Below are positions 23,119 through 45,375 of a DNA stretch of 56,790 bases, piece by piece (the first letter of the stretch is position 1; every line of letters begins with the position of its first letter). The position numbers and the translations under genes are program-made. The notes below the pieces were generated by a model that searched no databases, was not told the origin of the DNA, and saw only the letters and a program-made list of their open reading frames with translations. The stretch lies in assembly GCA_035689325.1 (NCBI GenBank), contig DASSLQ010000107.1, positions 1-56,790 of the forward strand. The letters run 5' to 3'. This DNA is from Burkholderiales bacterium. Its GTDB lineage: Bacteria > Pseudomonadota > Gammaproteobacteria > Burkholderiales > SG8-39.

Positions 23119-24459
23119 CTATTCGGGCGTCAGGAAGCGGTGGTATTGGCCGTCGGGAATCTCGTTGAGCTCGCAGGCAGTGCCCGGTGCAAAGAAGGAC
23201 CACGGTGTCGCCGTCTGCCGATCGGCAAACACGAAGCGCGCGCGCACGCTCCAGAAGTATCGCTGACCGGGCTTCAGCGCCTGCTCGATCCGGTGCTCGG
23301 GGCGCGTGAGGCCGTCTCGCTGATAGACGAGGCTGCGCCGTGAGCAGTCTTCCTCGTCCCAGACGCGCAGGTCGTAGGTGACGTGGCTGACGCTCGAGGC
23401 GAGCTCGCGGTCGAGCGCGCGCGGGAACGCCTCCCAGGTGAGCAGCGGCTGAACCGAGTCGGCGCTGCCGAAGCGCAGCGCGCTGCCCATGCACAGGTCC
23501 TTGCCATACTTGATGAAGGGCGCACTGACGAAGTCGCCGATACCGAGCGGCTTGGCGGCCGGCTTGCGCGGCTCGAGCCAGCACAGGCCATATTGCGGGT
23601 CGACCTCGGGCAGCCGGCCGAAGCTCGACGGCATGGCGAGGTCGACCGCGCCGAGCAGGAAGAAGCCATCGGCGATGCGCCCCGCGAGATCGTCGTAGGC
23701 CCGGTCGAGCTCTTCATCGATCAGCTTCGCGCCGTCCGCCGTCCAGCGAGCGAGCTCGCGCCGCGGACTGTGGTAGCGCAGCTCGCGCGCAAAGAGCGCT
23801 TCCTCGTCGCCGGCGTGCAGCAGGCGCGCGCGCACCGTGAGCGTCAGCGCGAGCGCCGGATTGCGGGTGCCGCCGGGACACGGATTGGCATCGAAGGGCG
23901 CGCGCGCCACGCATCCTTCCAGCTCGATCGCGAGCACGGCGAGCTCGAGCACCGTATCGGCGGGCGCTTCTTGGGCCACACGTACCGCTCCGTCGGCACC
24001 GAGCACGCTCGCGACGCGCGCCGCCAATGCCCGCTGGCTGTCGAGGCGAGCCGCCGCGTCGTGAATCACTTTGTCGATCTCGCGCGCCTTGTCGGCCGGC
24101 ACCGCATGCACGCTGCCTTCCACGGCACCGCCGGCGGCCTCCGCCGTGATCACCACGGGCGCCATGAGGAGCACGTAGGGCGTCGCCGCCCCGGCGCTCG
24201 CCGCGACGATCAGCACGGCGAGGCCCGCCTCGGTGCCGCGCCCGAGCGCGCCGAGCGCGGCGCCCGTCGGGCGGCTCTTGGCGAAGGTGGCGAAATTGGA
24301 GCGCGGGACGCTGTCCGCAGGAAGGATGACGACGGTGCCAACGGCGGCCTGCACCTCCGGCGGCGGCGACGCGGCGCCTTGCGTCGTGCAGCCGCTCAGC
24401 GCCGCTTCAAGCGAGAACCAGATACACGGCAGCGAGCGTGCCCAGGAACGCGAACCCAT
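23119..24459 (-). CDS. Unknown 446-aa putative lipoprotein
   Basis: ATG at 24459; LSGC lipobox near the N-terminus. No recognisable family. Overlaps the frdD 3-prime end by 53 nt. Confidence 0.55.
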   Translation of the reverse strand: MGSRSWARSLPCIWFSLEAALSGCTTQGAASPPPEVQAAVGTVVILPADSVPRSNFATFAKSRPTGAALGALGRGTEAGLAVLIVAASAGAATPYVLLMAPVVITAEAAGGAVEGSVHAVPADKAREIDKVIHDAAARLDSQRALAARVASVLGADGAVRVAQEAPADTVLELAVLAIELEGCVARAPFDANPCPGGTRNPALALTLTVRARLLHAGDEEALFARELRYHSPRRELARWTADGAKLIDEELDRAYDDLAGRIADGFFLLGAVDLAMPSSFGRLPEVDPQYGLCWLEPRKPAAKPLGIGDFVSAPFIKYGKDLCMGSALRFGSADSVQPLLTWEAFPRALDRELASSVSHVTYDLRVWDEEDCSRRSLVYQRDGLTRPEHRIEQALKPGQRYFWSVRARFVFADRQTATPWSFFAPGTACELNEIPDGQYHRFLTPE

Positions 24460-24751
24460 GGAAGATCGCCTTGAGGCCGGGCCCGACGTGCACGCCGAAG
24501 TCGTGCACGCAGTGGTACATGCGATGCAGGCCGTGGAACAGGAAGAGCCCGATCACGGCAACGATCGCGAGCTTGCCGATCGGGTTATGGACGAGCGCGA
24601 GCATGCGCTCGTAGCTCATCGTCTCGCGCGACATCAGGCCCATTGGCACGGCGATGCCGGTGATGAAGATGAGCACCGGCCCGATCAGCGCCGACAGCAT
24701 GCCGCCCGCGCCGAACAGCGACCAGAAGATCGGCTTGTTCGAGCGCTTCAT
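24407..24751 (-). CDS. frdD: Quinol:fumarate reductase membrane anchor subunit D
   Basis: ATG at 24751. KPIFWSLFGAGGMLSALIGPV...LSYERMLA...GLHRMYHCVHDFGVHV is collinear with E. coli FrdD. Confidence 0.85.
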   Translation of the reverse strand: MKRSNKPIFWSLFGAGGMLSALIGPVLIFITGIAVPMGLMSRETMSYERMLALVHNPIGKLAIVAVIGLFLFHGLHRMYHCVHDFGVHVGPGLKAIFHGFAFLGTLAAVYLVLA

Positions 24752-25116
24752 GCGCGCGCCGCCCACAACAGCAGCACCGAGCAGATGCCGATCGCCGTCA
24801 CGCCGGCGACGACGATCGCCTTGTCGGGCACCGGCACGCGCGGCAGGGTCTTCGGCATGATCTTGAACCAGGTCCAGGCGTGATACGCGACGAGCACGAA
24901 CGCGAGCACGTGGTACGCAATGACCCACGGGCGCGAGAGCCGCTCGAGCCAGTCCTCGTAGCGCACCTCGCTCTGCGTCAGGCGCGCGACGCCGACGAGC
25001 AGCGTAAGCGCGTAGATCGTGAGAACGACGCAGCTCGCCTCGCGCACCATGTACCACACGTAGTACGGATTGCGCCGCCACCACCACGCGGTCACCGGGC
25101 GCCGATAGGCCTTCAT
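24748..25116 (-). CDS. frdC: Quinol:fumarate reductase membrane anchor subunit C
   Basis: 122 aa. RRPVTAWWWRRNPYYVWYMVREAS resembles E. coli FrdC [24 protein letters not shown]. Confidence 0.85.
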   Translation of the reverse strand: MKAYRRPVTAWWWRRNPYYVWYMVREASCVVLTIYALTLLVGVARLTQSEVRYEDWLERLSRPWVIAYHVLAFVLVAYHAWTWFKIMPKTLPRVPVPDKAIVVAGVTAIGICSVLLLWAARA

Positions 25117-25847
25117 CTGCCACTCCGCGGCGCGAGGAAGCGCAGGAAGTAGTCCTTGGTGCTTTCGATCTTGTTCTGGTTCACCGCGCGCGCCGGATCG
25201 ACACCCTTCGGGCAGACCTCGGAGCAGTAGCCCACCAGCGTGCAGCCCCAGACGCCGTCCTCGGCGTTGACGAGCTGCATGCGCTCCTGTTTTCCACCGT
25301 CGCGGGAATCGGCGTTATAGCGGTGCAGCAGCGCGAGCACGGCCGGGCCGGTGAATTTCTCGTTCAGCCCGTACTGCGGGCACGCGGCGTAGCACAGCAG
25401 GCAGTTGATACATTGCGAGTACTGGTAGTAGTCGGCCAGCTGCTCCGGTGTCTGGCGGTGCGGCTCGGCGCCGGGATCGACCTTCGGCATGAGCCAGGGC
25501 TTGGCGGACTCGAGCTTCGCCAGGAAATCGGATTGGTCGATGGCGAGATCGCGCACGATCGGGAAATGCGTAAGCGGCTCTACGCGCAGCGGTCCGGGGT
25601 AGTAGTCGCGCAGGAAGGTCTCGCATCCGAGCCGCGGCACCCCGTTCACCATGGTGCCGCAGCTGCCGCAGATCGCCATGCGGCAGGACCAGCGGAAGGT
25701 GAGGCTGCCGTCGAGCTCGTCCTTGATGTACTGCAGGCCCTGCAGCACGGTCATGTCGTCGGTAAAGGGCACGTCGTAGTGCTGCCAGTGCGGCGCGGCA
25801 TCCGCCTCCGGGTGGTAGCGCAGGCACTCGATGGCGATCGTTCTCAT
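25113..25847 (-). CDS. frdB: Fumarate reductase iron-sulfur subunit
   Basis: ATG at 25847 (MRTIAIECLRYHPE). Motifs CRMAICGSCGTMVNG, CINCLLCYAACP, CTLVGYCSEVCPK. Confidence 0.9.
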   Translation of the reverse strand: MRTIAIECLRYHPEADAAPHWQHYDVPFTDDMTVLQGLQYIKDELDGSLTFRWSCRMAICGSCGTMVNGVPRLGCETFLRDYYPGPLRVEPLTHFPIVRDLAIDQSDFLAKLESAKPWLMPKVDPGAEPHRQTPEQLADYYQYSQCINCLLCYAACPQYGLNEKFTGPAVLALLHRYNADSRDGGKQERMQLVNAEDGVWGCTLVGYCSEVCPKGVDPARAVNQNKIESTKDYFLRFLAPRSGR

Positions 25848-27604
25848 GTCATCACCGCCTGCTTGCCGGCGCCCCCGTAGTGACGCTGGCGGGGCGCGGA
25901 CTTGGTGATGGTTACCGGCTGGTGCTCTATGCGCGGAGCGCCATCGCCGCCGTGGTGAGCGAGCGTGTGCTTGAGGAAGTTGGCGTCGTCGCGCCGCTCG
26001 TAGCCGTCGAGGCGCTGGTGCGCGCCCCGCGACTCGCGGCGCGAGAGTGCCGAGTGCGCCATCGCCTCCGCCACTTCGAGCATGAAGCCGAGCTCGATCG
26101 CCGTAAGCCACTCGGTGTTGAAGGCCCGGCCGCGATCGTCGAGCTTCACGCCGCGCCGGTAGCGTTCGCGCAGCTCGGCGAGCTTGCTGCAGGCGGCCTT
26201 CATGCCGGACGCGTCGCGATAGATGCCCACGCCCTCCTCCATGGCGTCGCGCATCCCGTCGCGCAGCTTGGCCACGCGCTCGCCCTGCTCATTGCTCAAC
26301 ATCGCGCCAAAGCGGGCCGCCGATGCGGCGGCGGCCTCGACGTTGCGCACCGGCCGCGCGCTGCGCGCGAACTCGGCGGCCGCGTCGCCCGCGGCGCGGC
26401 CGAACACCACGATCTCGACCAGCGAATTCGAGCCCAGGCGGTTCGCGCCGTGGATGCCGACGCTCGCGCACTCGCCGGCCGCATACAGCCCCGCGAGCGG
26501 CGTCTCGCAGCGCACATTCGTGTAGATGCCGCCCATCGTGTAATGCACCGCCGGGCACACGGGGATCGGCTGCTTCACCGTATCGATGCCGGCGAAGGTC
26601 TTCGCCGCCTCGGTAATGAGCGGCAGGCGCTCGTGGATCTTCTTCGCGCCGAGGTGGCGCAGATCGAGGTGCACTGCCGGCCCCTGCGGCGTGGCGATGG
26701 TGCGGCCCTTGTGCAGCTCGTGCCAGAACGCCTGCGAGAGGCGGTCGCGCGGGCCGAGCTCCATCGCTTTCACGCGCGGCCACGGATCGACCGGGCCGAG
26801 GCCGTAGTCCTGGAGATAGCGATAGCCGTCCTTGTTGACGAGGATCGCGCCTTCGCCGCGGCATGCCTCGGTGATCAGGATGCCGGTGCCCGGGAGGCAG
26901 GTCGGGTGCCACTGCATGAACTCCATGTCGCGCAGCGGCGCGCCGTGGCGGAACGCGAGGCCCATGCCGTCGCCGGTAACGGTACCGGCGTTGGTGTTCT
27001 GGCGATAGACGCGCCCGGCACCGCCGGTCGCGAGCACTACGGCAGCGCATTCGATGAGCACGAACTCGCCGCTCGCGATATCGATCGTGAGCACACCGCG
27101 CACGCGGCCGTCCTCGACGATGAGATCGGCGCAGAAATGCTCGTCGTAACGCCGGATCTGCGGATACTTGAGCGACGTCTGGAAGAGCGTATGCAGGATG
27201 TGAAAGCCGCTGCGGTCCGCCGCGAACCAGGTACGCTGGATCGACATGCCGCCAAAGAAGCGCGTGTTGATCGTCCCGTCGCTCTTGCGGCTCCACGGAC
27301 AGCCCCAGTGCTCGAGCTGCATCAGCTCGGCGTTGCAGCGCTCGACGAAATAATCGACCACGTCCTGGTCGCACAGCCAGTCGCCGCCCGACACGGTGTC
27401 GTTGAAGTGCGCTTCCAGGCTGTCGTCATCGCGCGTGACGCCGGCCGCGCCGCCTTCGGCTGCCACGGTGTGGCTCCTCATCGGCAGCACCTTGGAGACG
27501 AGCGCGACAGTCAGGCGCGTGTCCTGCGCGGCCACGGCGAGGGCTGCGCGCAAGCCCGCGCCACCGGCGCCCACTACGACGACATCCGCCTTGGCCGATT
27601 GCAT
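25844..27604 (-). CDS. frdA: Fumarate reductase flavoprotein subunit
   Basis: 586 aa. Motifs VVVVGAGGAGLRAAL, SHTVAAEGG (covalent-FAD His context), HYTMGGI. Confidence 0.9.
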   Translation of the reverse strand: MQSAKADVVVVGAGGAGLRAALAVAAQDTRLTVALVSKVLPMRSHTVAAEGGAAGVTRDDDSLEAHFNDTVSGGDWLCDQDVVDYFVERCNAELMQLEHWGCPWSRKSDGTINTRFFGGMSIQRTWFAADRSGFHILHTLFQTSLKYPQIRRYDEHFCADLIVEDGRVRGVLTIDIASGEFVLIECAAVVLATGGAGRVYRQNTNAGTVTGDGMGLAFRHGAPLRDMEFMQWHPTCLPGTGILITEACRGEGAILVNKDGYRYLQDYGLGPVDPWPRVKAMELGPRDRLSQAFWHELHKGRTIATPQGPAVHLDLRHLGAKKIHERLPLITEAAKTFAGIDTVKQPIPVCPAVHYTMGGIYTNVRCETPLAGLYAAGECASVGIHGANRLGSNSLVEIVVFGRAAGDAAAEFARSARPVRNVEAAAASAARFGAMLSNEQGERVAKLRDGMRDAMEEGVGIYRDASGMKAACSKLAELRERYRRGVKLDDRGRAFNTEWLTAIELGFMLEVAEAMAHSALSRRESRGAHQRLDGYERRDDANFLKHTLAHHGGDGAPRIEHQPVTITKSAPRQRHYGGAGKQAVMT

Positions 27605-28294
27605 CTAGCGCCTGGTGATGGTCAGAAGCTGGTACAGGCCGCCGAAGAACGTTTGCTTCTCCACGCGAGCGACGGCGCCCGCCGGGAACCAGTCGGCGAT
27701 CTCGTGGCGCCAGAGATCCATGGCGAAGGGCTCGAGCGTCTTGAGGATGCCGACCATCGGCAGATAGAGCGGGTTCGATTTCCGCGGGCGGTGGTAATCG
27801 ACGATGACGAGCTGCCCTCCCGGCTTCACCACGCGCAGCGCCTCGGCGATGGTGCGCCGGCGCACGTCTTCGGGCTGCTCGTGCAGCAGGAAAAAGAGCA
27901 GCGCACGGTCATAGGCGCCGCTGGCGATGTCGAGCGCGGCGCTGTCGCCCTGCATCAGGCCGACGCGCGGATCGCCGGGGAGCTTGCGTGCGAGGTTGTC
28001 GAGTTGCACACGCAGGATGTCGACCACGTCGAGGCTGCCGCCGGTGCCAAGGCGCGAGCGCAGCCGGTCGGTAAGGTTGCCGTAGACGCAAGCGATCTGC
28101 AGCGTCCGCCCTTCGAGGCGCGCGCCGAGCGCGTCAAGCGCGGCGTCGCGCAGGCGGCCGAAGTTGCCCCACAGGATCAGGTTGACGAGCCATTGGCGCT
28201 CGAACAAGCGCACCGCGTTCGGGTGGACGTAGGCCCACCAGTAGGTCTGCGCGAGGTAGCGGGGTACGGCGATGGGTTCGATGGCGCGCTGCAA
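27605..28294 (-). CDS. rquA: Rhodoquinone biosynthesis methyltransferase-like protein RquA
   Basis: Pattern YWWAYVHPNAVRLFERQ..ILWG..LQIACVYG..FFLLHEQPEDVRR..VIVDYHRP..NPL..LEPFAMDLWRHEI matches what I recall of the RquA family (atypical QxACVYG motif I). Likely TTG start at 28294, 7 nt after AGGAG; the track start at 28363 is a TTG inside the regulatory box. The TAG stop abuts the frdA ATG. Confidence 0.65.
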   Translation of the reverse strand: MQRAIEPIAVPRYLAQTYWWAYVHPNAVRLFERQWLVNLILWGNFGRLRDAALDALGARLEGRTLQIACVYGNLTDRLRSRLGTGGSLDVVDILRVQLDNLARKLPGDPRVGLMQGDSAALDIASGAYDRALLFFLLHEQPEDVRRRTIAEALRVVKPGGQLVIVDYHRPRKSNPLYLPMVGILKTLEPFAMDLWRHEIADWFPAGAVARVEKQTFFGGLYQLLTITRR

Positions 28295-28349
28295 GTTTCG
28301 ACTCCTCCGGGTTACGCCGTCGATTGTGCGAGGCGCGCGCCGCGCCGAT

Positions 28350-28363
28350 TTGACCTGCGTCAA
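28350..28363. promoter_or_regulatory. Crp/Fnr-type box TTGACCTGCGTCAA upstream of rquA-frdABCD
   Basis: Exact palindrome. Centre about 62 bp upstream of the proposed rquA start and 47 nt downstream of the stop of the cytochrome gene at 28410. Confidence 0.65.
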
Positions 28364-28409
28364 AAAGGGGCGCCCGCGCGCCCCGATTCGGAATTTTCCG
28401 AGTCCGGCG

Positions 28410-28694
28410 CTACTTGGCCGCGAGCACCTGCTCGACCGCGCTCTTCAGCTCCGCGTCCGAGGCATTGACCTTCATATGGCCTTTGCCTTCTTTCAGCTTG
28501 GCGACGAGCGCGGCCTCGGCGCCTTTATTGTCCTTGTACTTCGCCGCAACCTCCTTGAAGGCCGGGCCGACTTTCTTCTTGTCCATCTCGTGGCAGTTCA
28601 GGCAGCCCTTGGCCTTGAGGACGTCGGACTGAGCAAGGACAGCGCCGCTCGCAGCGGCGGCGACCACGGCAGCGGCAATCAGCAGGTTCTTCAT
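28410..28694 (-). CDS. Monohaem class I cytochrome c, MtoD-like
   Basis: 94 aa with signal peptide and a single CLNCH. VGPAFKEVAAKYK...KLKEGKGH pattern. Lies immediately downstream of an MtoB-type porin gene. Confidence 0.75.
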   Translation of the reverse strand: MKNLLIAAAVVAAAASGAVLAQSDVLKAKGCLNCHEMDKKKVGPAFKEVAAKYKDNKGAEAALVAKLKEGKGHMKVNASDAELKSAVEQVLAAK

Positions 28695-28709
28695 TCCTTG
28701 GTTCCTCGT

Positions 28710-30860
28710 CTAGAACTTGTACTTGGCGAGAGCGTACACGATGTTGGTGGTGTAGGGCTGGAAGGCGTACTGCCCGGTCGTGTAGGAGAAAGACGGAGCG
28801 GTGACGCCGACGGTCGTGACGTACTTCGTATTGTCGTAGCCGATGTCGCTGTACCAGTAGTGCTCGTACGCGTAGCCGCCGGTGAATTCCCAGCTGCGGT
28901 TGTAGTCGTAGATCGCGCGCAGGCTGAGGGACGTGCGCCGCGTATTGTCGAAGTTGTTGATCGGCTGGAACACGGTGGTGGCACCGCCCGGTTGCGCGGT
29001 AAAGTCGGCGGCGCCGTTGGTCTCCGCATAGGTCGCCGAGCCCTTCAGCGTCAGCTTCTCGCGCGGCTTCCAATCTGCGCCGACGCCAACTTCCCAGCTC
29101 TTGTCGGTGTTGTTGGCATTCCAGTTGTAGGTCGAAGTGGTCGGCGGCGCCGATGGATCGGGGTTGCCGGTGCCGACGCGGTGCGTCGACTTGAATTTCG
29201 TGTATTCGAAGTCGGTGAAGGCGAGCACGCGGAAGCGCGACGGATCGCCGTATCCGACGCTCAGGTACAGCTCCTGGCGCTGGTCGGACGTGCGGCCGAG
29301 CTGCGTGTCCTTGTAGTTGTTGTCCTTGAAGATCGCCTCCACGCCGACGTCGAAGCCGCCGCCCGGCACCATGTCCAGCACGGCCTTGATCAGGTTCTGG
29401 TTGACATTGGCGAAATCGAAGCGCCGCACGAAGAGGTCCATCGGGTTCGCCGCAAGCGTCGCGACGTCCGCCTCAAAATCCGAGCGCCGCTCCAGGAACT
29501 GGTACTTGACGCGGCTCGTCAGCCAGTCGAGGGAGCTGTTCTTCCACTCGACGAAGACTTTGTTGTCCTTGGTGCTCGGGAAATCGGCGCGCTCGCGCTC
29601 GGTGTGCAGGTATTCGTAGCCGCCGGAGAACCTGTTTTCGCGCGACAGGCGGTAGTTCGCCTCGGCCCCGATGTCGTGCCTGCGGTAGTGGAACAGGTCC
29701 GCGCTGCACAACACGCCCGCCGCAGCGGCGCAGTTGACGCGCGGGTCGGTCGAGCCCAGGCGCAGCCCCGACGCGACGGTCGGGTTGAACGTCATCTCGG
29801 TCGAATCGTTCTTCTGACTCGCGTAGTCGTAGTAGAGCCGCGTATCGAGCGTCTTCGTCGGATGCGAGGCGAGCGAGACCGAGGCGGTGGTGTTCTTGAT
29901 GTCGCCGTGGAAGCTGGACTCGTTCGGATTGGTGGCCGGGAACGCTCCCCCGGTGGAGAGCATCGTCTGCTGGATGTTCACGTCGTTGGTCAGGTGGCTC
30001 GTCGTGAAGCGCCCGGCGAGCGTCGAATCCATCGGCAGCTGACGCAGGTTGCCGTTGATGGCGAGCCGCGTGAGGTCGTTGCTCGGCGTAAGCACGGTCG
30101 TATCGAGGCCGTTGCCGAAGAAATCGTTCTGCCAGCGCAGCAGGGCGTTGCCGTTGTCGAAGCTGCTGTGCATGAGGTTTATCGCGAGATGTCCGCGCTT
30201 GCTGGAGTAGCCAGCCTCGCCGCTCACATTGCGCGTCGTGTAGTCGATCGGCGTGGGCAGGTCCATGAAGCCGTTGCCGGGGCTCGTGCCTTTGGCGCCT
30301 GCGAACACATTGATGCCCTTGCGCGTCACCTCGTTGCCGTCGAGGCGGAAATAGAAGGGCGACGCCGCCTGCCACTCGGCGAAGCCGCCGACGTCCCTGC
30401 GCTTGTAGGAGTGGTCGAAGCTATTCCAGGTCGCGGGGTTGGTGTTCGGGAACGTACCCGTGAGCGTGGTGCCGCCGATGCCGATGTACGGCGAGAGCGC
30501 GCCGGGACCCGAGCCGAAGTTGTGCCGCAGCTCGTTGTCGTAAAGGCGGTACTTGTACGTGCCGTAGCGTCCGCCCTGCAGGTTGAGGTACTGGTCATCG
30601 CGCCCGAGGTTCTCGCCGTAAGCGTTGAGATAGTTCGATTCGCCGCGCTGCCGCAGCTCGAAGGCGCCGATCGGCTTCGTGCCTTCGCTCAGATCGCGAT
30701 ACTCATTCAGCTTCGAGGGATCGCTGGCACTCTCGCTGACATGGCGGCCGCCGACGGTGACCGAGCCGGACCATTCCTTCTGCGTTTGGGTCTCCTGGGC
30801 TCCCGCGAACGTGGGAACGAACAGCCCTGCGACGAGAACCGATAAGAGCTTGCGTTCCAT
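28710..30860 (-). CDS. mtoB: MtrB/PioB/MtoB-family outer-membrane porin (module 1)
   Basis: 716 aa with signal peptide. LNEYRDLSEGT...YLNLQGGRYGTYKYRLYDNELRHNF is typical of the family. Beta-strand-rich, ends in aromatic ...AKYKF. Confidence 0.8.
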   Translation of the reverse strand: MERKLLSVLVAGLFVPTFAGAQETQTQKEWSGSVTVGGRHVSESASDPSKLNEYRDLSEGTKPIGAFELRQRGESNYLNAYGENLGRDDQYLNLQGGRYGTYKYRLYDNELRHNFGSGPGALSPYIGIGGTTLTGTFPNTNPATWNSFDHSYKRRDVGGFAEWQAASPFYFRLDGNEVTRKGINVFAGAKGTSPGNGFMDLPTPIDYTTRNVSGEAGYSSKRGHLAINLMHSSFDNGNALLRWQNDFFGNGLDTTVLTPSNDLTRLAINGNLRQLPMDSTLAGRFTTSHLTNDVNIQQTMLSTGGAFPATNPNESSFHGDIKNTTASVSLASHPTKTLDTRLYYDYASQKNDSTEMTFNPTVASGLRLGSTDPRVNCAAAAGVLCSADLFHYRRHDIGAEANYRLSRENRFSGGYEYLHTERERADFPSTKDNKVFVEWKNSSLDWLTSRVKYQFLERRSDFEADVATLAANPMDLFVRRFDFANVNQNLIKAVLDMVPGGGFDVGVEAIFKDNNYKDTQLGRTSDQRQELYLSVGYGDPSRFRVLAFTDFEYTKFKSTHRVGTGNPDPSAPPTTSTYNWNANNTDKSWEVGVGADWKPREKLTLKGSATYAETNGAADFTAQPGGATTVFQPINNFDNTRRTSLSLRAIYDYNRSWEFTGGYAYEHYWYSDIGYDNTKYVTTVGVTAPSFSYTTGQYAFQPYTTNIVYALAKYKF

Positions 30861-30869
30861 GTGCCCCCC

Positions 30870-31832: not shown

Positions 31833-31905
31833 TGTTGTCTCCTCCAGTGCGGCTCGCGCATGCACGCGCCGACGAGCCATTGAACTGCGTTGGCGTCATC
31901 ATCGT

Positions 31906-31919: not shown

Positions 31920-31945
31920 AGCGCCTGCGGGAGAGCCGCCAAACG

Positions 31946-34374: not shown

Positions 34375-34389
34375 CTCCGATCTCCGGGC

Positions 34390-38729: not shown

Positions 38730-38738
38730 ACGCCTTTG

Positions 38739-38752
38739 TTGACCTAAATCAA
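38739..38752. promoter_or_regulatory. Crp/Fnr-type box TTGACCTAAATCAA upstream of the tetrahaem c4-type gene
   Basis: Exact palindrome. Centre about 40 bp upstream of the ATG at 38785. Confidence 0.55.
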
Positions 38753-38784
38753 GGCCGGATTGGCGCGGGACGATAGGGTCAGGC

Positions 38785-39996
38785 ATGCTCAAGGCTGCCG
38801 TGCGCGTACTCTTGCCGACGCTGCTCCTGCTATGGGCCGCATGCGCCGTGGCCCAGCCTGCGCGGCTTAAGCCCGCGGCGGATGCGGACCTGCGGGCGCT
38901 CTATGCCAACGCCGCGGACATCGCGGAAGGCAAACGCCTGGCGGAGAGCTCCTGCGCACGCTGCCATGGCGCGAACGGCATCAGCTCAACGCGCGGCATC
39001 CCGAACATCGCCGGGCAGCGTGCGGCCTATCTGCACCTGCAGCTGCGCGCCTACCGGCAGGGCGCGCGCGCCAAGGGCCCGATGGGCGGCGCGGTGGGCT
39101 TCCTGAGCGACGAGGCGCTCATCAAGGTGGCCGCCTATTTCGGCAGCCTGGAGCCGGCGAAGCCAGCGGCGGCGAAGCCGGTAGCGCAGAAGTCCGACCC
39201 GCTGCAGGCCGGCAAGGCGGCGGCCGCCGCCTGCGGCGCCTGCCACGGCGACAACGGCACGAGCAAGACGCCGGGCACGCCGAGCCTCGTCGGCTTCAAT
39301 CCGACATACTTCGTCGCGGCCATGAGCGCCTACAAGAGCGGCCAACGCAAGAACGACATGATGAAGTCCATGGCCGGCAGCCTGAACGACGCCGACCTCG
39401 CCAACGTCGCCCTCTACTATGCGCTGCAGAAACCCGCGCGTGCGCAGACGCCGGCCGCCGGCGATGCGGCAGCGGGCAAGGCGGCCGCCGGCGCCTGCAG
39501 CGGCTGCCACGGCGAAACCGGGGTCAGCGCCAGCCCGGAGACCCCGAGCCTTGCCGGCCAGGACGCCCAGTACCTGAGCGCCGCCCTGCTCGCCTACAAG
39601 GACAAGGCGCGCAAGGACGAAGCAATGCAGGGCATCGCCGCGGCGCTGGACGAGCAGACGACCAGAAACATCGCCGCGTATTACGCTGCGCAGCAGCCGC
39701 AGGCGCCGGGCGTTCGCAAGCCCCTCAGCGTCGCCGAGTGGGTCGAGCGCTGCGATCGCTGCCACGGTTCGAATGGCAACAGCACCGATGCGCTGATCCC
39801 GGCGCTCGCCGGGCAGCGCGCCGACTGGCTGGAAACGGTGCTGCAGGCATACCGCAGCGGCGCGCGCAAGAGCGCGGCGATGAGCGCCATGTCCTCGGGG
39901 CTGAGCGAGACGGACATCAAAGAACTGTCGGCGTACTACGCGCGCCAGACGCCGCGCGCGGTGCTCTATGTGGTGGTTCCGGAGGGGCAACGATGA
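38785..39996 (+). CDS. Tetrahaem cytochrome c built from four c4-type class I domains
   Basis: 403 aa with signal peptide. CARCH, CGACH, CSGCH, CDRCH, each followed by the P.L/IAGQ...YL...L.AY..G.R pattern. Confidence 0.8.
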   Translation: MLKAAVRVLLPTLLLLWAACAVAQPARLKPAADADLRALYANAADIAEGKRLAESSCARCHGANGISSTRGIPNIAGQRAAYLHLQLRAYRQGARAKGPMGGAVGFLSDEALIKVAAYFGSLEPAKPAAAKPVAQKSDPLQAGKAAAAACGACHGDNGTSKTPGTPSLVGFNPTYFVAAMSAYKSGQRKNDMMKSMAGSLNDADLANVALYYALQKPARAQTPAAGDAAAGKAAAGACSGCHGETGVSASPETPSLAGQDAQYLSAALLAYKDKARKDEAMQGIAAALDEQTTRNIAAYYAAQQPQAPGVRKPLSVAEWVERCDRCHGSNGNSTDALIPALAGQRADWLETVLQAYRSGARKSAAMSAMSSGLSETDIKELSAYYARQTPRAVLYVVVPEGQR

Positions 39997-40796
39997 GGAT
40001 CAACGAGCCTACGGTGGACGACGAGCCGCTGCACCGGCTTTTCTACCATTTCTCCGAGATGCCGAAGAGCCTTCGCGTGCTCTATACCGCGACGCTCCTC
40101 GTGCTCGGGATGGGCTACCTGTTCGCGCTGATTTATCTCTTCCATACGTACTCGGGCAAGGACGGCAATCCGGGAACGCTCTCGTATGAGGACATCGTCA
40201 TCGCCTACAGCGGCAGCGGCAAGGGCTCGCGTCTGGAGTCGGCGCTGCGCGGCCCGATGTCCACGATGCTGCCGCGCGACGAGATGACGCCGATTCTCGC
40301 GTGGCTGCAGCAAGGCGCCGGTCGCGACGCCTTCGAGAAGACGATCCGGCCAACGCTCGACAAGCGCTGCATGGCCTGCCATGACGGCAGCAACCCGCAC
40401 CTGCCCAACCTGAACGGCTTCGACAACGTGCAGAAGCTCACCGAGCGCGACACCGGCACCGGGGTCTTTACCCTGGTTCGCGTATCGCACATTCACCTCT
40501 TTGGCCTCACGTTCATCTTCTTCCTGCTGGGAACGATCTTCAGCCACGCCTACGTGCGGCCGGTGTGGTTCAAGTGCACCGTCATCGTGCTGCCTTTCGT
40601 CGCCCTGGTGATGGACGTGAGCTCCTGGTATTTCACGAAGCTGTTCCACCCCTTTGCGCTGGTGGTGATGGCCGGCGGCGGCCTGATGGGACTGTCCTTC
40701 GCCTTCATGTGGGTGGTGTCCATGTATCAGCTCTGGTGGTCGAAGCCGCCGAGCCCGGTCGTGCAAAGAGCCACCGCAACCGTTGATGTCGGCTGA
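39993..40796 (+). CDS. Unknown polytopic membrane protein with one CXXCH motif
   Basis: ATG at 39993 (ATGA overlap with the previous stop). 267 aa, about 4 TM helices, periplasmic loop with CMACHDGSNPHLPNL, and His-rich TM (VSHIHLFGLTFIFF). Confidence 0.6.
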   Translation: MRINEPTVDDEPLHRLFYHFSEMPKSLRVLYTATLLVLGMGYLFALIYLFHTYSGKDGNPGTLSYEDIVIAYSGSGKGSRLESALRGPMSTMLPRDEMTPILAWLQQGAGRDAFEKTIRPTLDKRCMACHDGSNPHLPNLNGFDNVQKLTERDTGTGVFTLVRVSHIHLFGLTFIFFLLGTIFSHAYVRPVWFKCTVIVLPFVALVMDVSSWYFTKLFHPFALVVMAGGGLMGLSFAFMWVVSMYQLWWSKPPSPVVQRATATVDVG

Positions 40797-40812: not shown

Positions 40813-41946
40813 ATGAAAAGCCTGAAGCTGGGAATCGTCGTTTCGCTGGCGCTCGCCGCCTGCTCACCGGAGCAGCCGGCCGGCAAGGCGGATGCCGCGA
40901 AGCTCGCGCCGGGCAATGCGGCCGCCGGCAAGCCGATCGCGGAGAAGGAATGCAAAGGCTGCCACGGCCTCGACGGCAAAGGCGCGGCGCCGGGCATCCC
41001 GCATCTCGCCGCGCAGAGCGAGCGCTATCTTGTCTCGGCGCTCAAGGAATACAAGGACAACAACCGCACGCACGCCGCCCTCAGGGCCATCGCCGAGGGC
41101 CTGACGGATGCCGACACGCGCAACGTGGCCGCGTATTACGCGGGCCTGCCGCCGGTGCAGCTCGCATCGCAGACCCAGCCGAAGCAGATCACGCCCTACG
41201 AGCACGGCAAGGCGCTCGCGAGCGCCTGCGCGCAATGCCACGGCCCGGACGGCAATAGCAAGACCTCAGGCACGCCGAGCCTCGCCGGACAGCAGTTGCG
41301 CTACCTGGTCGTTGCCATGGACGAGTACCTGCACAGCGAGCGCAAGGCGGCTTCGATGCACGCCGTGGTGCCGCGCCTGGGCAAGCTCGACAAGGAAGAC
41401 CTGGCCCTCTATTTCGCTTCGCAGACCCCGGTGCAGCGCGCGGCCGCGCCTTTCGGCGATGCGGCGGCGGGCGAACCGCTCACCGCGGTGTGCGGCGGAT
41501 GCCATGGGGCGCAGGGCGTGAGCGCCGACAGCGCGACGCCCACGCTCGCCGGTCAGGACGCCGCCTACCTGGTCGAAGCGATCAAGGCCTACCGCACCAC
41601 GCGCAAGCGCGAAAATATGCGTCTATACGTCACCGGTTTGAAGGAGGCGGACATCCGCAACATCGCGGCGTTCTACACGACGCAGAAATCGCTCGCATCA
41701 GAAAAAGGGGACACCGTGGCTCAGCAGGTCGCCGACAAGTGCGAACGCTGCCACGGCAGTGGCGACAATCCGGCGCTGTCGGTGCCCAAGATCCGGGGCC
41801 AGGACCGGGACTACCTGATCATGGCGCTGCGCGCCTACCGCGACGATCGGCGCGGCAGCTCGACGATGCACAAGATGAGCATCCCCTACGGCGACTCGAT
41901 CATCGAAAGCCTGGCGTCGTACTACGCGAGCCAACCGCCCAGATAG
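40813..41946 (+). CDS. Tetrahaem c4-type cytochrome lipoprotein
   Basis: ATG at 40813. MKSLKLGIVVSLALAAC lipobox. CKGCH, CAQCH, CGGCH, CERCH with c4-type repeats. Confidence 0.8.
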   Translation: MKSLKLGIVVSLALAACSPEQPAGKADAAKLAPGNAAAGKPIAEKECKGCHGLDGKGAAPGIPHLAAQSERYLVSALKEYKDNNRTHAALRAIAEGLTDADTRNVAAYYAGLPPVQLASQTQPKQITPYEHGKALASACAQCHGPDGNSKTSGTPSLAGQQLRYLVVAMDEYLHSERKAASMHAVVPRLGKLDKEDLALYFASQTPVQRAAAPFGDAAAGEPLTAVCGGCHGAQGVSADSATPTLAGQDAAYLVEAIKAYRTTRKRENMRLYVTGLKEADIRNIAAFYTTQKSLASEKGDTVAQQVADKCERCHGSGDNPALSVPKIRGQDRDYLIMALRAYRDDRRGSSTMHKMSIPYGDSIIESLASYYASQPPR

Positions 41947-41959
41947 GGCCGCGTCATCA

Positions 41960-42271
41960 TCACTTGCCCTTGAGCGACGCGTAATACGCCGCTATGTCGG
42001 CCATGTCCTGATCGCTCAGCTTGCTCGCAAATGTCTTCATGACGGCGTTCGTGCGCTTGCCCGACTTGTAGTCGTTCATCGCTTGCACGAGCTCGCCCTC
42101 CGGCTTTCCGGCGAGGGGCGGGTTCGGCTTGCGCCCTTCGCCGTTTGCGCCATGGCAGCCGGCGCAGCTGCTCGTTTTGGCCTTGCCGGCGCCGGCATTG
42201 CCGCCCGCCTGGACGGCACTCATCGCTCCGAGCAAGGCGAAGATTGCAGCGGCGAGAATTGCACGTTTCAT
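41960..42271 (-). CDS. Monohaem class I cytochrome c
   Basis: ATG at 42271; 103 aa with signal peptide. CAGCHGANGEG...PLAGK...YKSGKR..VM...DIAAYYA. Confidence 0.8.
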   Translation of the reverse strand: MKRAILAAAIFALLGAMSAVQAGGNAGAGKAKTSSCAGCHGANGEGRKPNPPLAGKPEGELVQAMNDYKSGKRTNAVMKTFASKLSDQDMADIAAYYASLKGK

Positions 42272-42303
42272 TGTCTGCTCCTGTGATGACCCAATGGACG
42301 ATT

Positions 42304-43518
42304 CTAGGCGACGGCTTCGTCGCCGACGAGACCTTCTGCGCCCGGCTCGTGCCTCGCTGCCGCCGGTTCCGTCCACGGCGGAAAGAAGCGCACGGCAATC
42401 GATAGCAGCAAGAATGGCATGACGAGCACCGCCAATGCCGCGAGCAGTCCCTCACGCCCGAAGACCGCCGGGTGGTAGGCCAGGATCCCCTTGCCGGTCT
42501 TCGCGATCTCCTGTCCGCCGATCACCACATTCCAGCGCATCATCAGCACGGCAAGCAATACCAGCACTGCACTCGCCGTGGCGCCGGCGATCAGCGCCCT
42601 TCCGGCCGTGCCGCGCCAGACCATATAGGTGAGCGTCAGCAGCGGCACCAGCGAGCCGATGCCGAACTGCAACACGAAGAACGGCAGGAGGAGCGGCCCC
42701 TTCACGTACTCCATGATCGCCTCGATGCCCTCGCGGCCGCGATACACCAGCGCCCCGAACTCGACCCCTTCGAGCACCAGCGTGAACATGAGGAATCCCC
42801 ACAGCGCATAGACCATGCCTTTCAGGCAGTCGAGGTCGACCGCAACGCGCCGCAGGCGGCAGGAGACCACGTAAAGCAACATGACGAGCGCTGTGCCCGA
42901 GATGATCGCCGAGAACAGGAATATCGCGGGCATCAGATCCGAAGACCACCATTCGCGCGACTTGACCGAGCCGAAGACGAAGCCGACGTAGCCGTGAAGC
43001 CCGTGCGCCGCCGGAATGCCCACGACCGCCAAGGCGAAGATCCATTTGCGGTCGTAGCGCATCGCCGCTTCGGAGAGGTCATTGGAGCCGAGCGACAGCG
43101 CGCGATAAATCCATCCGAGCACGCCGTTGCGCTCCTGCGCCTGGCGCACGATATGCGGCCGGAAGACGAACCAGTTCTCGAGCATGAGCAGCGTGACGTA
43201 GAAGCTCGCCATGTAGCCGAACATGACGAAGGCGGAGGTCCAGTGCGGCGTGATCATGGCGTTGAACGCGCGCTCCGGATGGCCGAGGTGCAGCATCAGC
43301 GGGATCGGCACGACCACCATGAAGCACAGCGATGCCAGCAGGGCGAGATGCGCCGCCGGCTTGAACCGCTGCATGCCGAACACCTGGTAGAGGCTCGAGA
43401 TGGTGAATGCCCCGGCGACCAGCCCGGTGAGGTAGGGGTACACCACGATCAGCGCCGACCAGCCGATGACGCTCTCGTTCGGATAGACGTAGCCGGTGAA
43501 AGTCATCACATGATCCAT
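42304..43518 (-). CDS. NrfD/PsrC-family integral membrane quinone-interacting subunit
   Basis: ATG at 43518 (MDHVMTFTGYVYPNESVIGWSALIVVYPYLTGLVAG). 404 aa, about 8-10 TM helices. Confidence 0.8.
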   Translation of the reverse strand: MDHVMTFTGYVYPNESVIGWSALIVVYPYLTGLVAGAFTISSLYQVFGMQRFKPAAHLALLASLCFMVVVPIPLMLHLGHPERAFNAMITPHWTSAFVMFGYMASFYVTLLMLENWFVFRPHIVRQAQERNGVLGWIYRALSLGSNDLSEAAMRYDRKWIFALAVVGIPAAHGLHGYVGFVFGSVKSREWWSSDLMPAIFLFSAIISGTALVMLLYVVSCRLRRVAVDLDCLKGMVYALWGFLMFTLVLEGVEFGALVYRGREGIEAIMEYVKGPLLLPFFVLQFGIGSLVPLLTLTYMVWRGTAGRALIAGATASAVLVLLAVLMMRWNVVIGGQEIAKTGKGILAYHPAVFGREGLLAALAVLVMPFLLLSIAVRFFPPWTEPAAARHEPGAEGLVGDEAVA

Positions 43519-44351
43519 CAGCTCACATCCTTGTCGATGCCGACATAGAACCCGTTGGGCGCGTTGCCCGACTCGGGCTTCAGCACATGCGTGCGGTTCT
43601 CGCGCAGGAAGCGGCTGATCGGGCTTTGCTTGTCGGCGCGGTCGCCGAACACGCGCGCGCCGGTCGGGCAGACTTCGACGCAGGCCGGCTGCAATCCTTT
43701 GGTGATGCGGTGGTAGCACCACGTGCACTTGTCGGTGACGTGCTTGCGCTCATCGAAGAAGCGCGCGCCGTAAGGGCAGGCCTGCACGCAGTACTGGCAG
43801 CCGATGCAGTACTTGTGGTCGATGACGACCACGCCATCCTTGGTCTTGTACGTGGCGCCGGTGGGGCACACCTGCACGCAAGCCGGATTGGTGCACTGGT
43901 TGCAGAGCTTGGGTACGAAAAAGGCCTTTTCTACCTGCTCGTCCGGATAACGATTGGCGAATCGATATTCGCCTTCGGCTAAGGAAGCGGCGATGTTCAC
44001 CGGATCGTGCTGGCTGTCGATGCGCGGCCGGTCTTCGCCTTGCAGATAGACGTAGCGCTCGACCCAGGTGCGGAAATGATGTGCATCCAGCGGCACGCCG
44101 TTCTCGGTCTTGCACGCCTCGACACAGCGCAGGCAGCCGATGCACTTGGTCGCGTCGACGCCGAATGCCCAATGGTGCTGCGTCCAGTCGTAGCCCGGAA
44201 TGGGCGAGTCGCTGCTCGCCGCTTCGGCCTCGCGCAGCGCCGCGTTGCTCGCGAGCGCGGCGCCCGCGCCCGCGGCCGCGCCGCCCAGCAACCGTAGAAA
44301 GCGCCGCCGCGCGGCCCTTGCCTGATCGGTGCTGCGGGTCAGCCCGTTCAT
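43518..44351 (-). CDS. Tat-exported 4x[Fe-S] ferredoxin subunit (NrfC/PsrB/HybA-like)
   Basis: ATG at 44351. Twin-arginine motif ARRRFLRLLGG. Cys clusters CIGCLRCVEAC, CNQCTNPACVQVCP, CIGCQYCVQACP, CTWCYHR...CVEVCP. Confidence 0.85.
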   Translation of the reverse strand: MNGLTRSTDQARAARRRFLRLLGGAAAGAGAALASNAALREAEAASSDSPIPGYDWTQHHWAFGVDATKCIGCLRCVEACKTENGVPLDAHHFRTWVERYVYLQGEDRPRIDSQHDPVNIAASLAEGEYRFANRYPDEQVEKAFFVPKLCNQCTNPACVQVCPTGATYKTKDGVVVIDHKYCIGCQYCVQACPYGARFFDERKHVTDKCTWCYHRITKGLQPACVEVCPTGARVFGDRADKQSPISRFLRENRTHVLKPESGNAPNGFYVGIDKDVS

Positions 44352-44361
44352 GTGCGTGGTC

Positions 44362-45375
44362 TCAATTGGCGCTCGCGTAATGCTCCGCCAAGGCATCCAT
44401 CTCGGCGTCGCTCAGTCCGCCGGCCACGCCGGCCATCAACTCATTCTTGCGAGCACCTGTCTTGTAGGCCTTCAGCGCGCTCACGAGGTATTGCTTCGAC
44501 TGTCCGGCGAGATTGGGCCACGCTGGGTTGGCGCTGATGCCCGCGGCGCCGTGGCACGGCACGCACGCGGCGACGTTCGCCTGGCTTGCGGCGCGTTTGG
44601 CTTCGCTGCGCGGCCGCGCCAAGCGAGCGTAGTAACCGGCGATCTTGCTGATGTCGCCATCGCCCAGCGCTTTGGCGGTTGCGGACATCATGGCGTTGTC
44701 GCGAGCGCCCGTCTTATAGGCCTTGAGCGCGTCGCTGAGGTAAGTGCTTTGCTGCCCGGCGAGATTCGGCCATGCTGGATTGGCGCTTATCCCGTTGGCG
44801 CCGTGACAACCCGAGCAGCTTGCGACCTTGCCCGCCGTCGCGTCAGTGGATCGGCCCGCGGGCGCCGCGGCGGTGCGTATCATTTTCGGCGAATGGGGGT
44901 TGTGGCAGCTCGTGCATTGCTGCGTGCCGGCATGCGTGGCAAGCACGATCTGTGGCTGCGCGGCCGGCCGGCCCGCCGTCTTTTCGTGGCACAGGGAACA
45001 GAGCTTGCGCGAATCGGCGGGAACGGCAAGCTTGCCGCTCGCCGGATGGTCGACACCGGTGCTCACGTGCTGAAAGAGCCCGCCTGCATCGCGTCCGCCC
45101 GCCGCCCCGTGGCAGACCTCGCACTGCACGGCCTTGCCCCGCTCGGTAGCGTGATGCACGCCTTTCGACCACTCCGCAAAGCGCTCGGCATGGCAATCGC
45201 GGCAATACTCCGAGCCCGTGAACTTCGGCTTGTCGGCGGCGATCTCCGCCACCGACGCGCCTCGATAGTGCCCGTAGAGGTAGAACGAATCGGCGGTAAA
45301 GAAGCGCTTCGCCGCATACGCCGCTACTCCGGCGGCAACCATGAGTGCAACGAGCCGAGTGATGTGTCTTGGCAC
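44362..45375 (-). CDS. Membrane-anchored hexahaem cytochrome c (tetrahaem domain + two c4-type domains)
   Basis: 337 aa with N-terminal TM helix. CRDCH, CEVCH, CSLCH, CTSCH, then a duplicated GISANPAWPNLAGQ..YL..ALKAYKTGAR domain with CSGCH and CVPCH. Confidence 0.8.
   Translation of the reverse strand: MPRHITRLVALMVAAGVAAYAAKRFFTADSFYLYGHYRGASVAEIAADKPKFTGSEYCRDCHAERFAEWSKGVHHATERGKAVQCEVCHGAAGGRDAGGLFQHVSTGVDHPASGKLAVPADSRKLCSLCHEKTAGRPAAQPQIVLATHAGTQQCTSCHNPHSPKMIRTAAAPAGRSTDATAGKVASCSGCHGANGISANPAWPNLAGQQSTYLSDALKAYKTGARDNAMMSATAKALGDGDISKIAGYYARLARPRSEAKRAASQANVAACVPCHGAAGISANPAWPNLAGQSKQYLVSALKAYKTGARKNELMAGVAGGLSDAEMDALAEHYASAN

Follow-up and report, generated by a model that had tools for sequence, protein, structure and literature searches.

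The Rhodoquinone Gene rquA in a Burkholderiales Island of Porin-Cytochrome Conduits and Fumarate Reductase

Introduction

In the model organisms of extracellular electron transfer, the inner-membrane proteins that feed Mtr and Mto conduits need a low-potential quinol, and the Betaproteobacteria in which such conduits are widespread make ubiquinone and, as a rule, no menaquinone. The Group 4 mtrCAB genes of Betaproteobacteria are often neighboured by frdABCD, an association for which bidirectional electron transfer was floated, and mtrCAB, frdABCD and ccm were found to travel together and to be absent from relatives without Mtr; the recipient of an mtr island was assumed there to hold menaquinone genes already (Baker 2022, PMC8805035). 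Linkage of rquA to frdABCD in Proteobacteria is likewise known, and Supplementary file 1 of that study places MtrB_PioB and multihaem genes beside rquA in Burkholderiales bacterium JOSHI_001 and Noviherbaspirillum denitrificans (Stairs 2018, PMC5953543). The MtoC/CbcL family and the Mto clusters had also been described before (Shi 2012; Zhong & Shi 2018). Here we analyse positions 1 to 56,790 of the forward strand of contig DASSLQ010000107.1 from a soil Burkholderiales bacterium (GCA_035689325.1), a stretch of 56,790 nucleotides hereafter called the window and the sole part of the genome analysed, in which rquA and frdABCD stand in one island with two porin-cytochrome conduits and several quinone-interacting cytochrome modules.

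Sequence comparison of this island with its relatives suggests that rhodoquinone may be the missing quinone behind extracellular electron transfer in menaquinone-less bacteria. In our preferred reading, to which we give about an even chance, fumarate reductase and outward electron transfer would both draw on rhodoquinol as their low-potential donor. An earlier note on this stretch had proposed rhodoquinone as a dedicated carrier between an extracellular conduit and fumarate reduction. The functional link is supported by recurrent synteny and shared FNR boxes, but not the idea of a dedicated wire, since rquA is also found in conduit operons without a nearby frd.

Rhodoquinone Synthesis, Fumarate Reductase and the Two Conduits

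Gene identities were judged from translations and from Pfam and NCBIfam profile scores against the family cut-offs, and all the genes that had been listed between 24407 and 45375 proved to be real at their coordinates. The rquA gene (27605-28294, minus strand) gives a full-length match to the equivalog NF038261, with 292.6 bits against a cut-off of 175, and Pfam Methyltransf_25/11 and Ubie_methyltran matches mark its product as a methyltransferase-type protein. Its motif I reads QIACVYGN in place of a GxGxG-type sequence and is conserved in the relatives; such an atypical motif I, within a class I S-adenosylmethionine-methyltransferase fold, has been described for RquA (PMC5953543). Translation most likely starts at the TTG at 28294, with a GGAGGA ribosome-binding site, giving 229 residues and not 252. 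The product is predicted to make rhodoquinone from ubiquinone, a conversion established for RquA (PMC9814641), and rhodoquinone seldom occurs together with menaquinone (5 of 84 RquA genomes; PMC11707229).

The frdABCD genes (24407-27604, minus strand) encode a quinol:fumarate reductase of the E. coli type, judging from their profile scores and from a subunit order A-B-C-D with two small haem-free anchors, as expected for type D. In this regard, frdA (25844-27604), frdB (25113-25847) and frdD (24407-24751) score 981, 380 and 135 bits with their NCBIfam models, against cut-offs of 854, 333 and 60, and frdC (24748-25116) matches Pfam Fumarate_red_C with 119.6 bits and its NCBIfam equivalog with 79, below the cut-off of 143.

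Also on the minus strand we find a periplasmic monohaem class-I cytochrome c of the c551/c552 family, MtoD-like (28410-28694), and two conduit pairs, in both of which the porin gene lies directly downstream of the decahaem gene. The first pair comprises MtoA1 (30870-31832), a periplasmic decahaem protein of the DmsE/MtrA family with a signal peptide and 10 CXXCH motifs (TIGR03508, 230 bits against 192; E value 4e-50 to MtrA 6R2Q_A), and MtoB1 (28710-30860), an outer-membrane porin of the MtrB/PioB family with a signal peptide and a C-terminal Phe, which reaches 242 bits with PF11854 and 205 with TIGR03509, below the cut-off of 240. The second comprises the periplasmic decahaem MtoA2 (34390-35376), again with a signal peptide and 10 CXXCH motifs (TIGR03508, 275 bits against 192; E value 8e-69 to 6R2Q_A), and the MtrB/PioB-family porin MtoB2 (32026-34374; PF11854, 386 bits; TIGR03509, 433 against 240; E value 4e-24 to MtrB 6R2Q_B). 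MtoA2 is 38-52% identical to the decahaem proteins of 20 related rquA loci, and on sequence comparison this second pair is the orthologue of the conduit found beside rquA in most relatives; a porin of the first type also occurs in Usitatibacter (locus L056), likewise with two conduits. A recent tandem duplication was rejected, the identities being 37% between MtoA1 and MtoA2 and 23% between MtoB1 and MtoB2, and such divergence points to two old paralogues.

A recount of haem-binding motifs returned exactly the 50 CXXCH that the earlier note had counted (1+10+10+2+11+4+1+4+1+6), all of them in the ten named proteins. In the 56.8-kb window, no further CXXCH occurs in any other stop-to-stop frame of at least 60 residues, save one overlapping wrong frame. 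The window therefore holds no MtrC-type gene, and the extracellular decahaem lipoprotein (MtrC/OmcA) of a three-component MtrCAB system is absent from it.

The G+C content is 0.605-0.66 across the mto genes (28000-35000), with its minimum at mtoB2, and about 0.68-0.70 on either side; the GC skew is also higher across this region. The dip in G+C is consistent with a horizontal acquisition of the conduits.

Linkage of rquA to Conduits in Related Genomes

Relatives were collected by an RquA scan of one genome per GTDB species, which returned 275 loci, and the best 80 were used. These are the nearest RquA relatives and not a random sample; each carries up to 10 kb of flank per side, less at contig ends, and was scored by tblastn with the window proteins, 36 of the 80 having at least 8 kb on both sides. 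The nearest RquA is 83% identical and comes from soil Burkholderiales metagenome-assembled genomes (MAGs).

Within 10 kb of rquA, frdA was found at 49 of the 80 loci (24 of the 36 with long flanks), and an MtoA-like decahaem together with an MtrB-like porin at 20 (13 of the 36). NapC/NirT tetrahaem genes occur at 14 loci, MtrC-like decahaem genes of 800-950 codons at 13, and at least one conduit or quinol-dehydrogenase component at 32 (16 of the long-flank loci). As a rough and not a computed estimate, with one or two MtrB-family genes per genome a given 20-kb stretch would contain one in less than 1% of cases. The adjacency of rquA to a full conduit, on whose conservation among relatives the earlier note had in part staked its idea, is thus a recurrent one. 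Its carriers include the isolates Ramlibacter lithotrophicus, Caenimonas terrae, Roseateles violae, Pseudaquabacterium terrae and Aquabacterium humicola, as well as MAGs of Piscinibacter, Usitatibacter, Rhodocyclaceae and Steroidobacteraceae.

Synteny is closest in L083, a soil Burkholderiales MAG, where rquA, a monohaem cytochrome c, a porin and a decahaem gene are followed by CRP and dihaem c genes, a HemG-like flavodoxin gene and then, all seven on the same strand, mtoC, c4, Aq_1264_TM, c4, hexahaem, nrfC and nrfD. In Roseateles violae PFR6 (L045), rquA, a monohaem c, a NapC/NirT protein, MtoA and MtoB are encoded together, and the 10 kb to each side hold no frd; L086 shows the order monohaem c, NapC/NirT, MtoA, MtoB, RquA and a lipoprotein, with no frd in the roughly 3.6 kb beyond rquA, and the same order, ending in rquA, is found in L012, with no frd in the roughly 3 kb that follow. 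A second group, L029, L058, L062, L065 and L082, has an MtoC-type gene directly beside frdABCD-rquA; no porin was found at these five loci within at most 10 kb per side, less at contig ends, and in L082, where rquA-frdABCD is accompanied by malic enzyme, none in 20.8 kb. Genes of the ccm set flank some clusters, as in L085. From these comparisons, the common denominator of the loci is rquA together with a quinone-interacting cytochrome.

The MtoC-Type Fusion and the Other Cytochrome Modules

On the plus strand, a periplasmic dihaem class-I cytochrome c, c5-like and with two copies of Pfam Cytochrome_CBB3 (35538-36164), precedes the gene of a large inner-membrane cytochrome with 11 CXXCH motifs and a C-terminal cytochrome b domain (36252-38729). 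The latter protein begins with two class-I haem domains that are MtoD-like, continues with a multihaem region of nine CXXCH motifs and ends in a dihaem b domain of the FdnI type with six helices. Its C-terminal third was modelled with AlphaFold2 as six long helices, at a predicted local distance difference test score (pLDDT) of 75.6, and the best Foldseek match of the b-domain model is FdnI (1KQF_C; probability 1.0, target TM-score 0.75), the dihaem cytochrome b of formate dehydrogenase-N. Its PF01292 score is 26.7 bits, below the cut-off of 30.1, and the helices carry invariant His residues. The CbcL/MtrH/MtoC family has been described as an N-terminal region of 3-23 CX2CH motifs joined to a six-helix HydC/FdnI-like dihaem b domain; in Dechloromonas aromatica and Gallionella capsiferriformans, MtoC is the protein of the inner membrane that partners the mtoA-mtoB-mtoD clusters (PMC6295460). 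By its architecture and modelled fold, compared with this published description, the 11-haem/cytochrome b fusion is assigned to that family, and the window would hence hold an Mto-type cluster with mtoA, mtoB, mtoC and mtoD. Two open reading frames (ORFs) over the same region, 36266-37099 and 37103-38776, were rejected as Arg-rich wrong frames. More than 1,220 homologues were found, with lengths of about 650, 725 and 825 residues, which would fit zero, one or two class-I domains.

The MtoD-like assignment of the monohaem protein (28410-28694) is one of degree, as in the Protein Data Bank it matches c551 (E value 8e-12) better than Sideroxydans MtoD 4XXL (4e-8). It has a conserved GxGH motif 38 residues past its CXXCH, and a His at this same distance is common to the monohaem protein and to both class-I domains fused in MtoC, in the context GHM in the stand-alone protein and GHP, with no Met, in the fused domains. 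The haem ligands of Sideroxydans MtoD are His47 and His95, and the shared residue, with the missing Met of the fused domains, may point to a comparable bis-His ligation in these monohaem-type domains.

Three further plus-strand genes encode two tetrahaem cytochromes and a membrane protein between them. The first, c4a (38785-39996), is a periplasmic c4-like protein of two PdsA/c4-like dihaem units, and the second c4-like protein (40813-41946) carries a lipobox; the c4-like domains give weak PdsA profile matches of 81-115 bits. The membrane protein (39993-40796) belongs to PF27139 (Aq_1264_TM), with four helices and one periplasmic CXXCH. It has 4,584 homologues, and in the 29 that were aligned, 72-87% identical, the CXXCH and five His residues (His14/19/166/168/185) are invariant; its AlphaFold2 model was poor (pLDDT 57.6), and no mention of the family name was found in the literature searched. 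Its gene always lies between tetrahaem c4-like genes, in the window as in L082-L084. On L082, a contig from a Joint Genome Institute (JGI) metagenome, a single polypeptide of 1,096 residues (6695-9985) unites the MtoC-type protein with the first of the tetrahaem c4-like proteins, which argues that the two work together. A 5,385-bp contig (L081; Logan, run SRR25158189) is 100% identical to the window over 38.2-43.5 kb.

A convergent minus-strand operon closes the island. It encodes a hexahaem protein anchored in the membrane at its N-terminus, with four NrfB-like haems and a C-terminal PdsA/c4-like dihaem domain (44362-45375), an NrfC/DsrO-type four-cluster ferredoxin exported by twin-arginine translocation (Tat), with Fer4_11 and an RRRFL Tat motif (43518-44351), an NrfD-type quinone-interacting membrane subunit (42304-43518; PF03916, 134 bits) and, as last gene, a monohaem class-I cytochrome c (41960-42271), over which a longer ORF (41922-42455) was rejected as an Arg-rich wrong frame. 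An NrfD subunit, a Tat-exported four-cluster ferredoxin and a multihaem cytochrome c make up the general NrfBCD/NetBCD-type layout. The more specific equivalogs were missed: the hexahaem protein has no NetB match, the NrfD and NrfC scores are 42 against 348 and 147 against 378, and the closest equivalog for the ferredoxin, DsrO, reaches 194.5 against a cut-off of 200. Membership in NetBCD was consequently rejected, as was an alternative complex III, which would call for an ActB with a molybdopterin-like domain, ActD and ActF, in view of an iron-sulfur subunit of only 277 residues and of no extra NrfD-like or ActD genes. In L083 and L084 the second c4-like gene and the hexahaem gene come one after the other on one strand.

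Predicted Anaerobic Regulation

A search with the FNR/FixK consensus TTGAT-N4-ATCAA found 11 boxes with at most one mismatch in the window, against 0.20 expected, a number not attained in any of 100 shuffles; when up to two mismatches are allowed, there are 28 boxes against 5.35 expected. All 11 better boxes are intergenic, where intergenic sequence makes up 4.5% of the window. Within the island, two boxes of one mismatch each lie upstream of mtoA1 (31906-31959), a perfect one in the divergent promoter of mtoA2 and the dihaem c gene (35453-35466), one of a single mismatch 65.5 nucleotides upstream of the mtoC start (36180-36193), with an equivalent in L083, one upstream of c4a (38739) and another perfect one 60.5 nucleotides upstream of the hexahaem gene (45429-45442).

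The minus-strand genes had been taken as a nearly gapless array. Their order holds, but a single transcription unit does not: a GC-rich, terminator-like hairpin with a T-run follows the monohaem gene (28384-28367, minus strand; element 28350-28384), and directly after it comes a two-mismatch FNR box centred 62.5 nucleotides upstream of the rquA start. With this hairpin and box, rquA-frdABCD has its own predicted FNR-type promoter, and together with the other boxes the array would make up at least three co-regulated units. In this line, 19 of 78 related loci have a box of no more than one mismatch in the sequence preceding rquA, compared with 1.4% of random segments, and the box layout is repeated in L083 and L086. 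Directly upstream of mtoA orthologues in other loci no such box was found, a comparison made uninformative by cymA or mtrC preceding mtoA within the operon.

Two tandem genes for CRP/FNR-family regulators (45621-47120, plus strand) lie beside the hexahaem operon, each preceded by an FNR box (45581 and 46397). Their recognition helices are identical (GMKKETLSRLLRQL) and show the E--SR pattern; neither protein has an N-terminal Cys cluster. Because such a helix comes here without the Cys cluster of FNR, the regulators look FixK/Dnr-like, and their position behind their own boxes suggests an autoregulated cascade. Paired CRP-family genes also flank the clusters of L083 and L086.

FNR-type boxes are not confined to the cytochrome genes. 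They start at 6269 before citrate synthase, at 14415 before a 2-oxoacid:ferredoxin oxidoreductase operon, at 17657 before a hemerythrin gene, at 21016 (two mismatches) in the divergent promoter of dctP and malic enzyme, at 50026 before an ADP-forming acyl-CoA synthetase/GNAT gene and at 52735 before a universal stress protein gene, so that nearly the whole 57-kb window looks like one anaerobic regulon. The boxes of citrate synthase, of the oxidoreductase operon and of the acyl-CoA synthetase gene, like those of the two regulators, are among the 11 better ones. From its boxes, the island is predicted to be an oxygen-repressed regulon of the FNR/FixK type.

Direction of Electron Flow

With a potential of about +100 mV, ubiquinol is ill suited to feed low-potential multihaem chains. 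Under anoxia, RquA would turn part of the ubiquinone pool into rhodoquinone (about -63 mV), and the rhodoquinol formed would have two outlets. Through the first, FrdABCD would reduce fumarate supplied by DctPQM and malic enzyme. Through the second, the MtoC/CbcL-type fusion, partnered by the c4 / Aq_1264_TM / c4 proteins, and the hexahaem-NrfC-NrfD module would pass electrons to the periplasm, a task that CymA-type dehydrogenases might share in the relatives; class-I cytochromes (MtoD-like and c4/PdsA-like) would then ferry them to the two MtoAB conduits and out of the cell. We infer that the inner-membrane modules of the island use rhodoquinone and that the usual direction is outward, along a chain that is probably reversible. 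Rhodoquinone would thereby take the role that menaquinone has for CymA in Shewanella and CbcL in Geobacter; CymA is menaquinone-specific according to the work cited in PMC13390432 and PMC4412085.

The loci with rquA and a conduit in which no frd was found, together with those with MtoC, rquA and frd in which no porin was found, argue for rhodoquinol as a hub with two sinks. Such a hub would also account for the co-travel of frdABCD, ccm and Mtr, through a shared dependence on the rhodoquinone carrier, and since the single gene rquA supplies the quinone, the island would be self-sufficient on transfer to a ubiquinone-only host.

Several observations weigh against rhodoquinol as a donor for outward transfer. 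The window has no MtrC-type surface cytochrome, and experiments on two-component MtoAB/PioAB conduits have to date connected them with electron uptake. Thirteen of the 50 haem motifs are of the class-I c4/c5/c551 type, and each of the four c4a domains has, by eye, a Met at the expected ligand position; class-I His/Met haems are usually high-potential and would be better suited to inward flow to oxidases or denitrification enzymes than to passing electrons on to the low-potential MtrA-type haems. Finally, the CbcL/MtrH/MtoC family occurs in Fe(III) reducers and in Fe(II) oxidisers alike, and its sequence is silent on direction (PMC6295460).

The same two-component conduits, lacking MtrC as MtoAB and PioAB do, also speak for flow in the opposite sense, the first of two directions named in the earlier note, in which MtoAB would take up electrons from a cathode, reduced humics, Fe(0)/FeS or a partner cell and pass them through MtoC, CymA-like or NrfCD modules to rhodoquinone and on to FrdABCD and fumarate. 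The FdnI-type b fold serves to reduce quinone with electrons from the periplasm in an energy-conserving way, the mtoC-frdABCD-rquA operons of L029, L058, L062 and L065 fit such a route, and Shewanella is known to reduce fumarate with cathode electrons by running its Mtr pathway in reverse. The ferrihydrite/Fe2+ couple, on the other hand, lies near or above 0 mV. With rhodoquinone at -63 mV and fumarate at +30 mV (PMC5953543), the span from an Fe(II) donor is nil or uphill by standard potentials, and fumarate respiration driven by Fe(II) would be energetically poor, although donors of lower potential would work. Moreover, a quinone of lower potential is harder, not easier, to reduce, and linkage of rquA to conduits with no frd nearby (10 kb in L045, shorter flanks in L086 and L012) is not what this scheme calls for. 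Bidirectional use of Mtr and Frd was itself raised by Baker et al. (PMC8805035), and all in all we regard such an inward flow as unlikely.

The many class-I domains of His/Met type would also fit a scheme in which the conduits oxidise Fe(II) or Mn(II) and deliver electrons through c4/c551-type cytochromes to a cbb3 oxidase or to denitrification, with rquA-frd as neighbours only by virtue of a shared anaerobic or micro-oxic regulon and island. Sideroxydans MtoD, at +155 mV, is a proposed feeder of an oxidase, the local regulators are FixK/Dnr-like, and expression of mtrCAB by Ramlibacter lithotrophicus has been seen in a co-culture that oxidises Mn(II) (PMC8805035). We nevertheless find such mere co-location improbable: rquA sits inside the operons of monohaem c, cymA, mtoA and mtoB in L045, L086 and L012, the MtoC, NapC/NirT and NrfCD modules all recur beside rquA, and no oxidase or nir/nor/nos genes are present in the window.

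Beyond rhodoquinol as a shared donor, a bolder and rather doubtful proposal is that the island is a complete, horizontally mobile kit for rhodoquinone-dependent, reversible extracellular electron exchange, with rquA replacing the entire menaquinone pathway, which in ubiquinone-only Betaproteobacteria would serve both for discharge to minerals and for extracellular uptake in support of fumarate respiration. If true, its uptake half would amount to a previously unrecognised lithotrophic or electrotrophic fumarate respiration.

The Lipoprotein and the Flanking Genes

The lipoprotein gene next to frdD (23119-24459, minus strand), whose start overlaps the frdD end by 53 nucleotides, had been set apart as an outsider among respiratory genes. 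Its product has no Pfam or NCBIfam match, a Gly/Ala-rich hydrophobic stretch and no haem motif, and belongs to a rare family of 27 homologues in which the lipobox and four Cys residues are conserved. The outsider view does not hold, as homologues follow MtrB-RquA in L086 (7371-8687), there as the last gene of the operon, and MtrB in L085 (3704-4906); these positions make the lipoprotein a recurrent accessory of Mto/RquA clusters, which might be a surface or outer-membrane partner of conduits lacking MtrC. In both of these loci a hemerythrin gene comes directly after the lipoprotein gene. The window has its own hemerythrin-domain gene (17074-17622, minus strand), found also near the island of L083, and a possible function is that of an O2, NO or iron sensor for the system.

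Between this gene and frdABCD lie a tripartite ATP-independent periplasmic (TRAP) C4-dicarboxylate transporter (DctM, DctQ and DctP by Pfam; 17678-20962, minus strand) and malic enzyme (Pfam malic and Malic_M; 21055-22686, plus strand). Both are probable accessories of the island, the transporter as a source of fumarate or malate; a malic enzyme gene stands beside frdD in L082 as well.

A HemG-like flavodoxin (Flavodoxin_5, of the quinone-dependent protoporphyrinogen oxidase type) is encoded at 7669-8196 on the plus strand, and a similar gene lies inside the L083 cytochrome island (5615-6151); hemG near mtrCAB in Rhodoferax was noted by Baker et al. (PMC8805035). Through such a protein, haem synthesis under anoxia could be coupled to the rhodoquinone pool. 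Together with the ccm genes beside some clusters (L085), the flavodoxin in both places also speaks for a suggestion of Baker et al. 2022, that FrdABCD provides succinate, and from it succinyl-CoA and 5-aminolevulinate, for a large haem requirement (PMC8805035). As the explanation of the present island, haem-precursor supply seems to us very improbable, as it leaves rquA in conduit operons without a nearby frd and the MtoC/NrfCD linkage unexplained, and Frd is a respiratory enzyme that here has a dicarboxylate transporter beside it.

Further out, two 2-oxoacid:ferredoxin oxidoreductase clusters (13-4279, plus strand; 10014-14381, minus strand) each include an NAD(P)H flavoprotein like the glutamate synthase small subunit. 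Alongside them are a 656-residue protein without a family match (4281-6251), citrate synthase, FeoB and LutABC, and the carbon metabolism around the island is unusually anaerobic for a Burkholderiales genome.

Comparison with Known Systems and Outlook

The earlier note held that rquA within an Mto/Mtr-type cluster had not been described. As to an explicit link, this stands for the open literature: no relevant paper was found that ties rhodoquinone to Mtr, Mto, CymA, decahaem proteins or extracellular electron transfer, in a search outside which most subscription journals lay, and the text of Baker 2022 contains neither "rhodoquinone" nor "methyltransferase" and makes no mention of rquA (PMC8805035). 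The adjacency itself, however, was already in print, as rquA beside MtrB in the table of Stairs 2018 and as Mtr with frdABCD in Baker 2022. What appears to be new is rquA as a recurrent member of conduit islands, including conduit operons independent of a nearby frd, and the predicted common FNR-box control of the rquA-frd and conduit units. New as well is the unusual completeness of the island in the window, which combines two conduits with three inner-membrane modules, an MtoC that bears fused domains, and the Aq_1264_TM protein and the lipoprotein as accessories.

The presence of rquA in or beside conduit clusters offers a concrete answer, rhodoquinone, to the question of which quinone serves them, and the idea is testable now in several culturable species with this arrangement. 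It would bear on iron and manganese cycling in soils, give bacterial rhodoquinone an ecological role past fumarate respiration, and add rquA as a marker when extracellular electron transfer capacity is predicted from genomes. For electron transfer engineering in a ubiquinone-only chassis, it would mean one extra gene.

Compared with the Group 4 clusters, orthologous loci of which were recovered in Ramlibacter, Caenimonas and Aquabacterium, the island shares a Burkholderiales MtrA/MtrB conduit beside frdABCD, accessories of MtoC/MtoD type and an island-like behaviour. Unlike the mtrCAB of that group, it has no MtrC in the window, two diverged conduits and extra NrfCD and c4/Aq_1264_TM modules. 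By the description of their parts, the known Mto clusters are similar in their decahaem MtoA, porin MtoB, monohaem MtoD and MtoC, a multihaem cytochrome b fusion; the MtoC of the window differs by two MtoD-like N-terminal domains (11 haems), and rquA-frdABCD adjoins the cluster. The loci of Stairs 2018 have in common with ours rquA immediately upstream of an E. coli-type frdABCD, and their MtrB_PioB neighbours were filed under "Complex II & Cytochrome", with no link drawn to extracellular electron transfer. Finally, the proposed pathway differs from the CymA-MtrCAB of Shewanella, the CbcL of Geobacter and the NetBCD-PdsA-MtrCAB of Aeromonas in having no MtrC/OmcA, a hexahaem protein without a NetB profile match and, as proposed, rhodoquinone in place of menaquinone, and resembles all three in the order of its parts, from a low-potential quinol through an inner-membrane dehydrogenase of multihaem or NrfD type and a periplasmic shuttle to a porin-cytochrome conduit.

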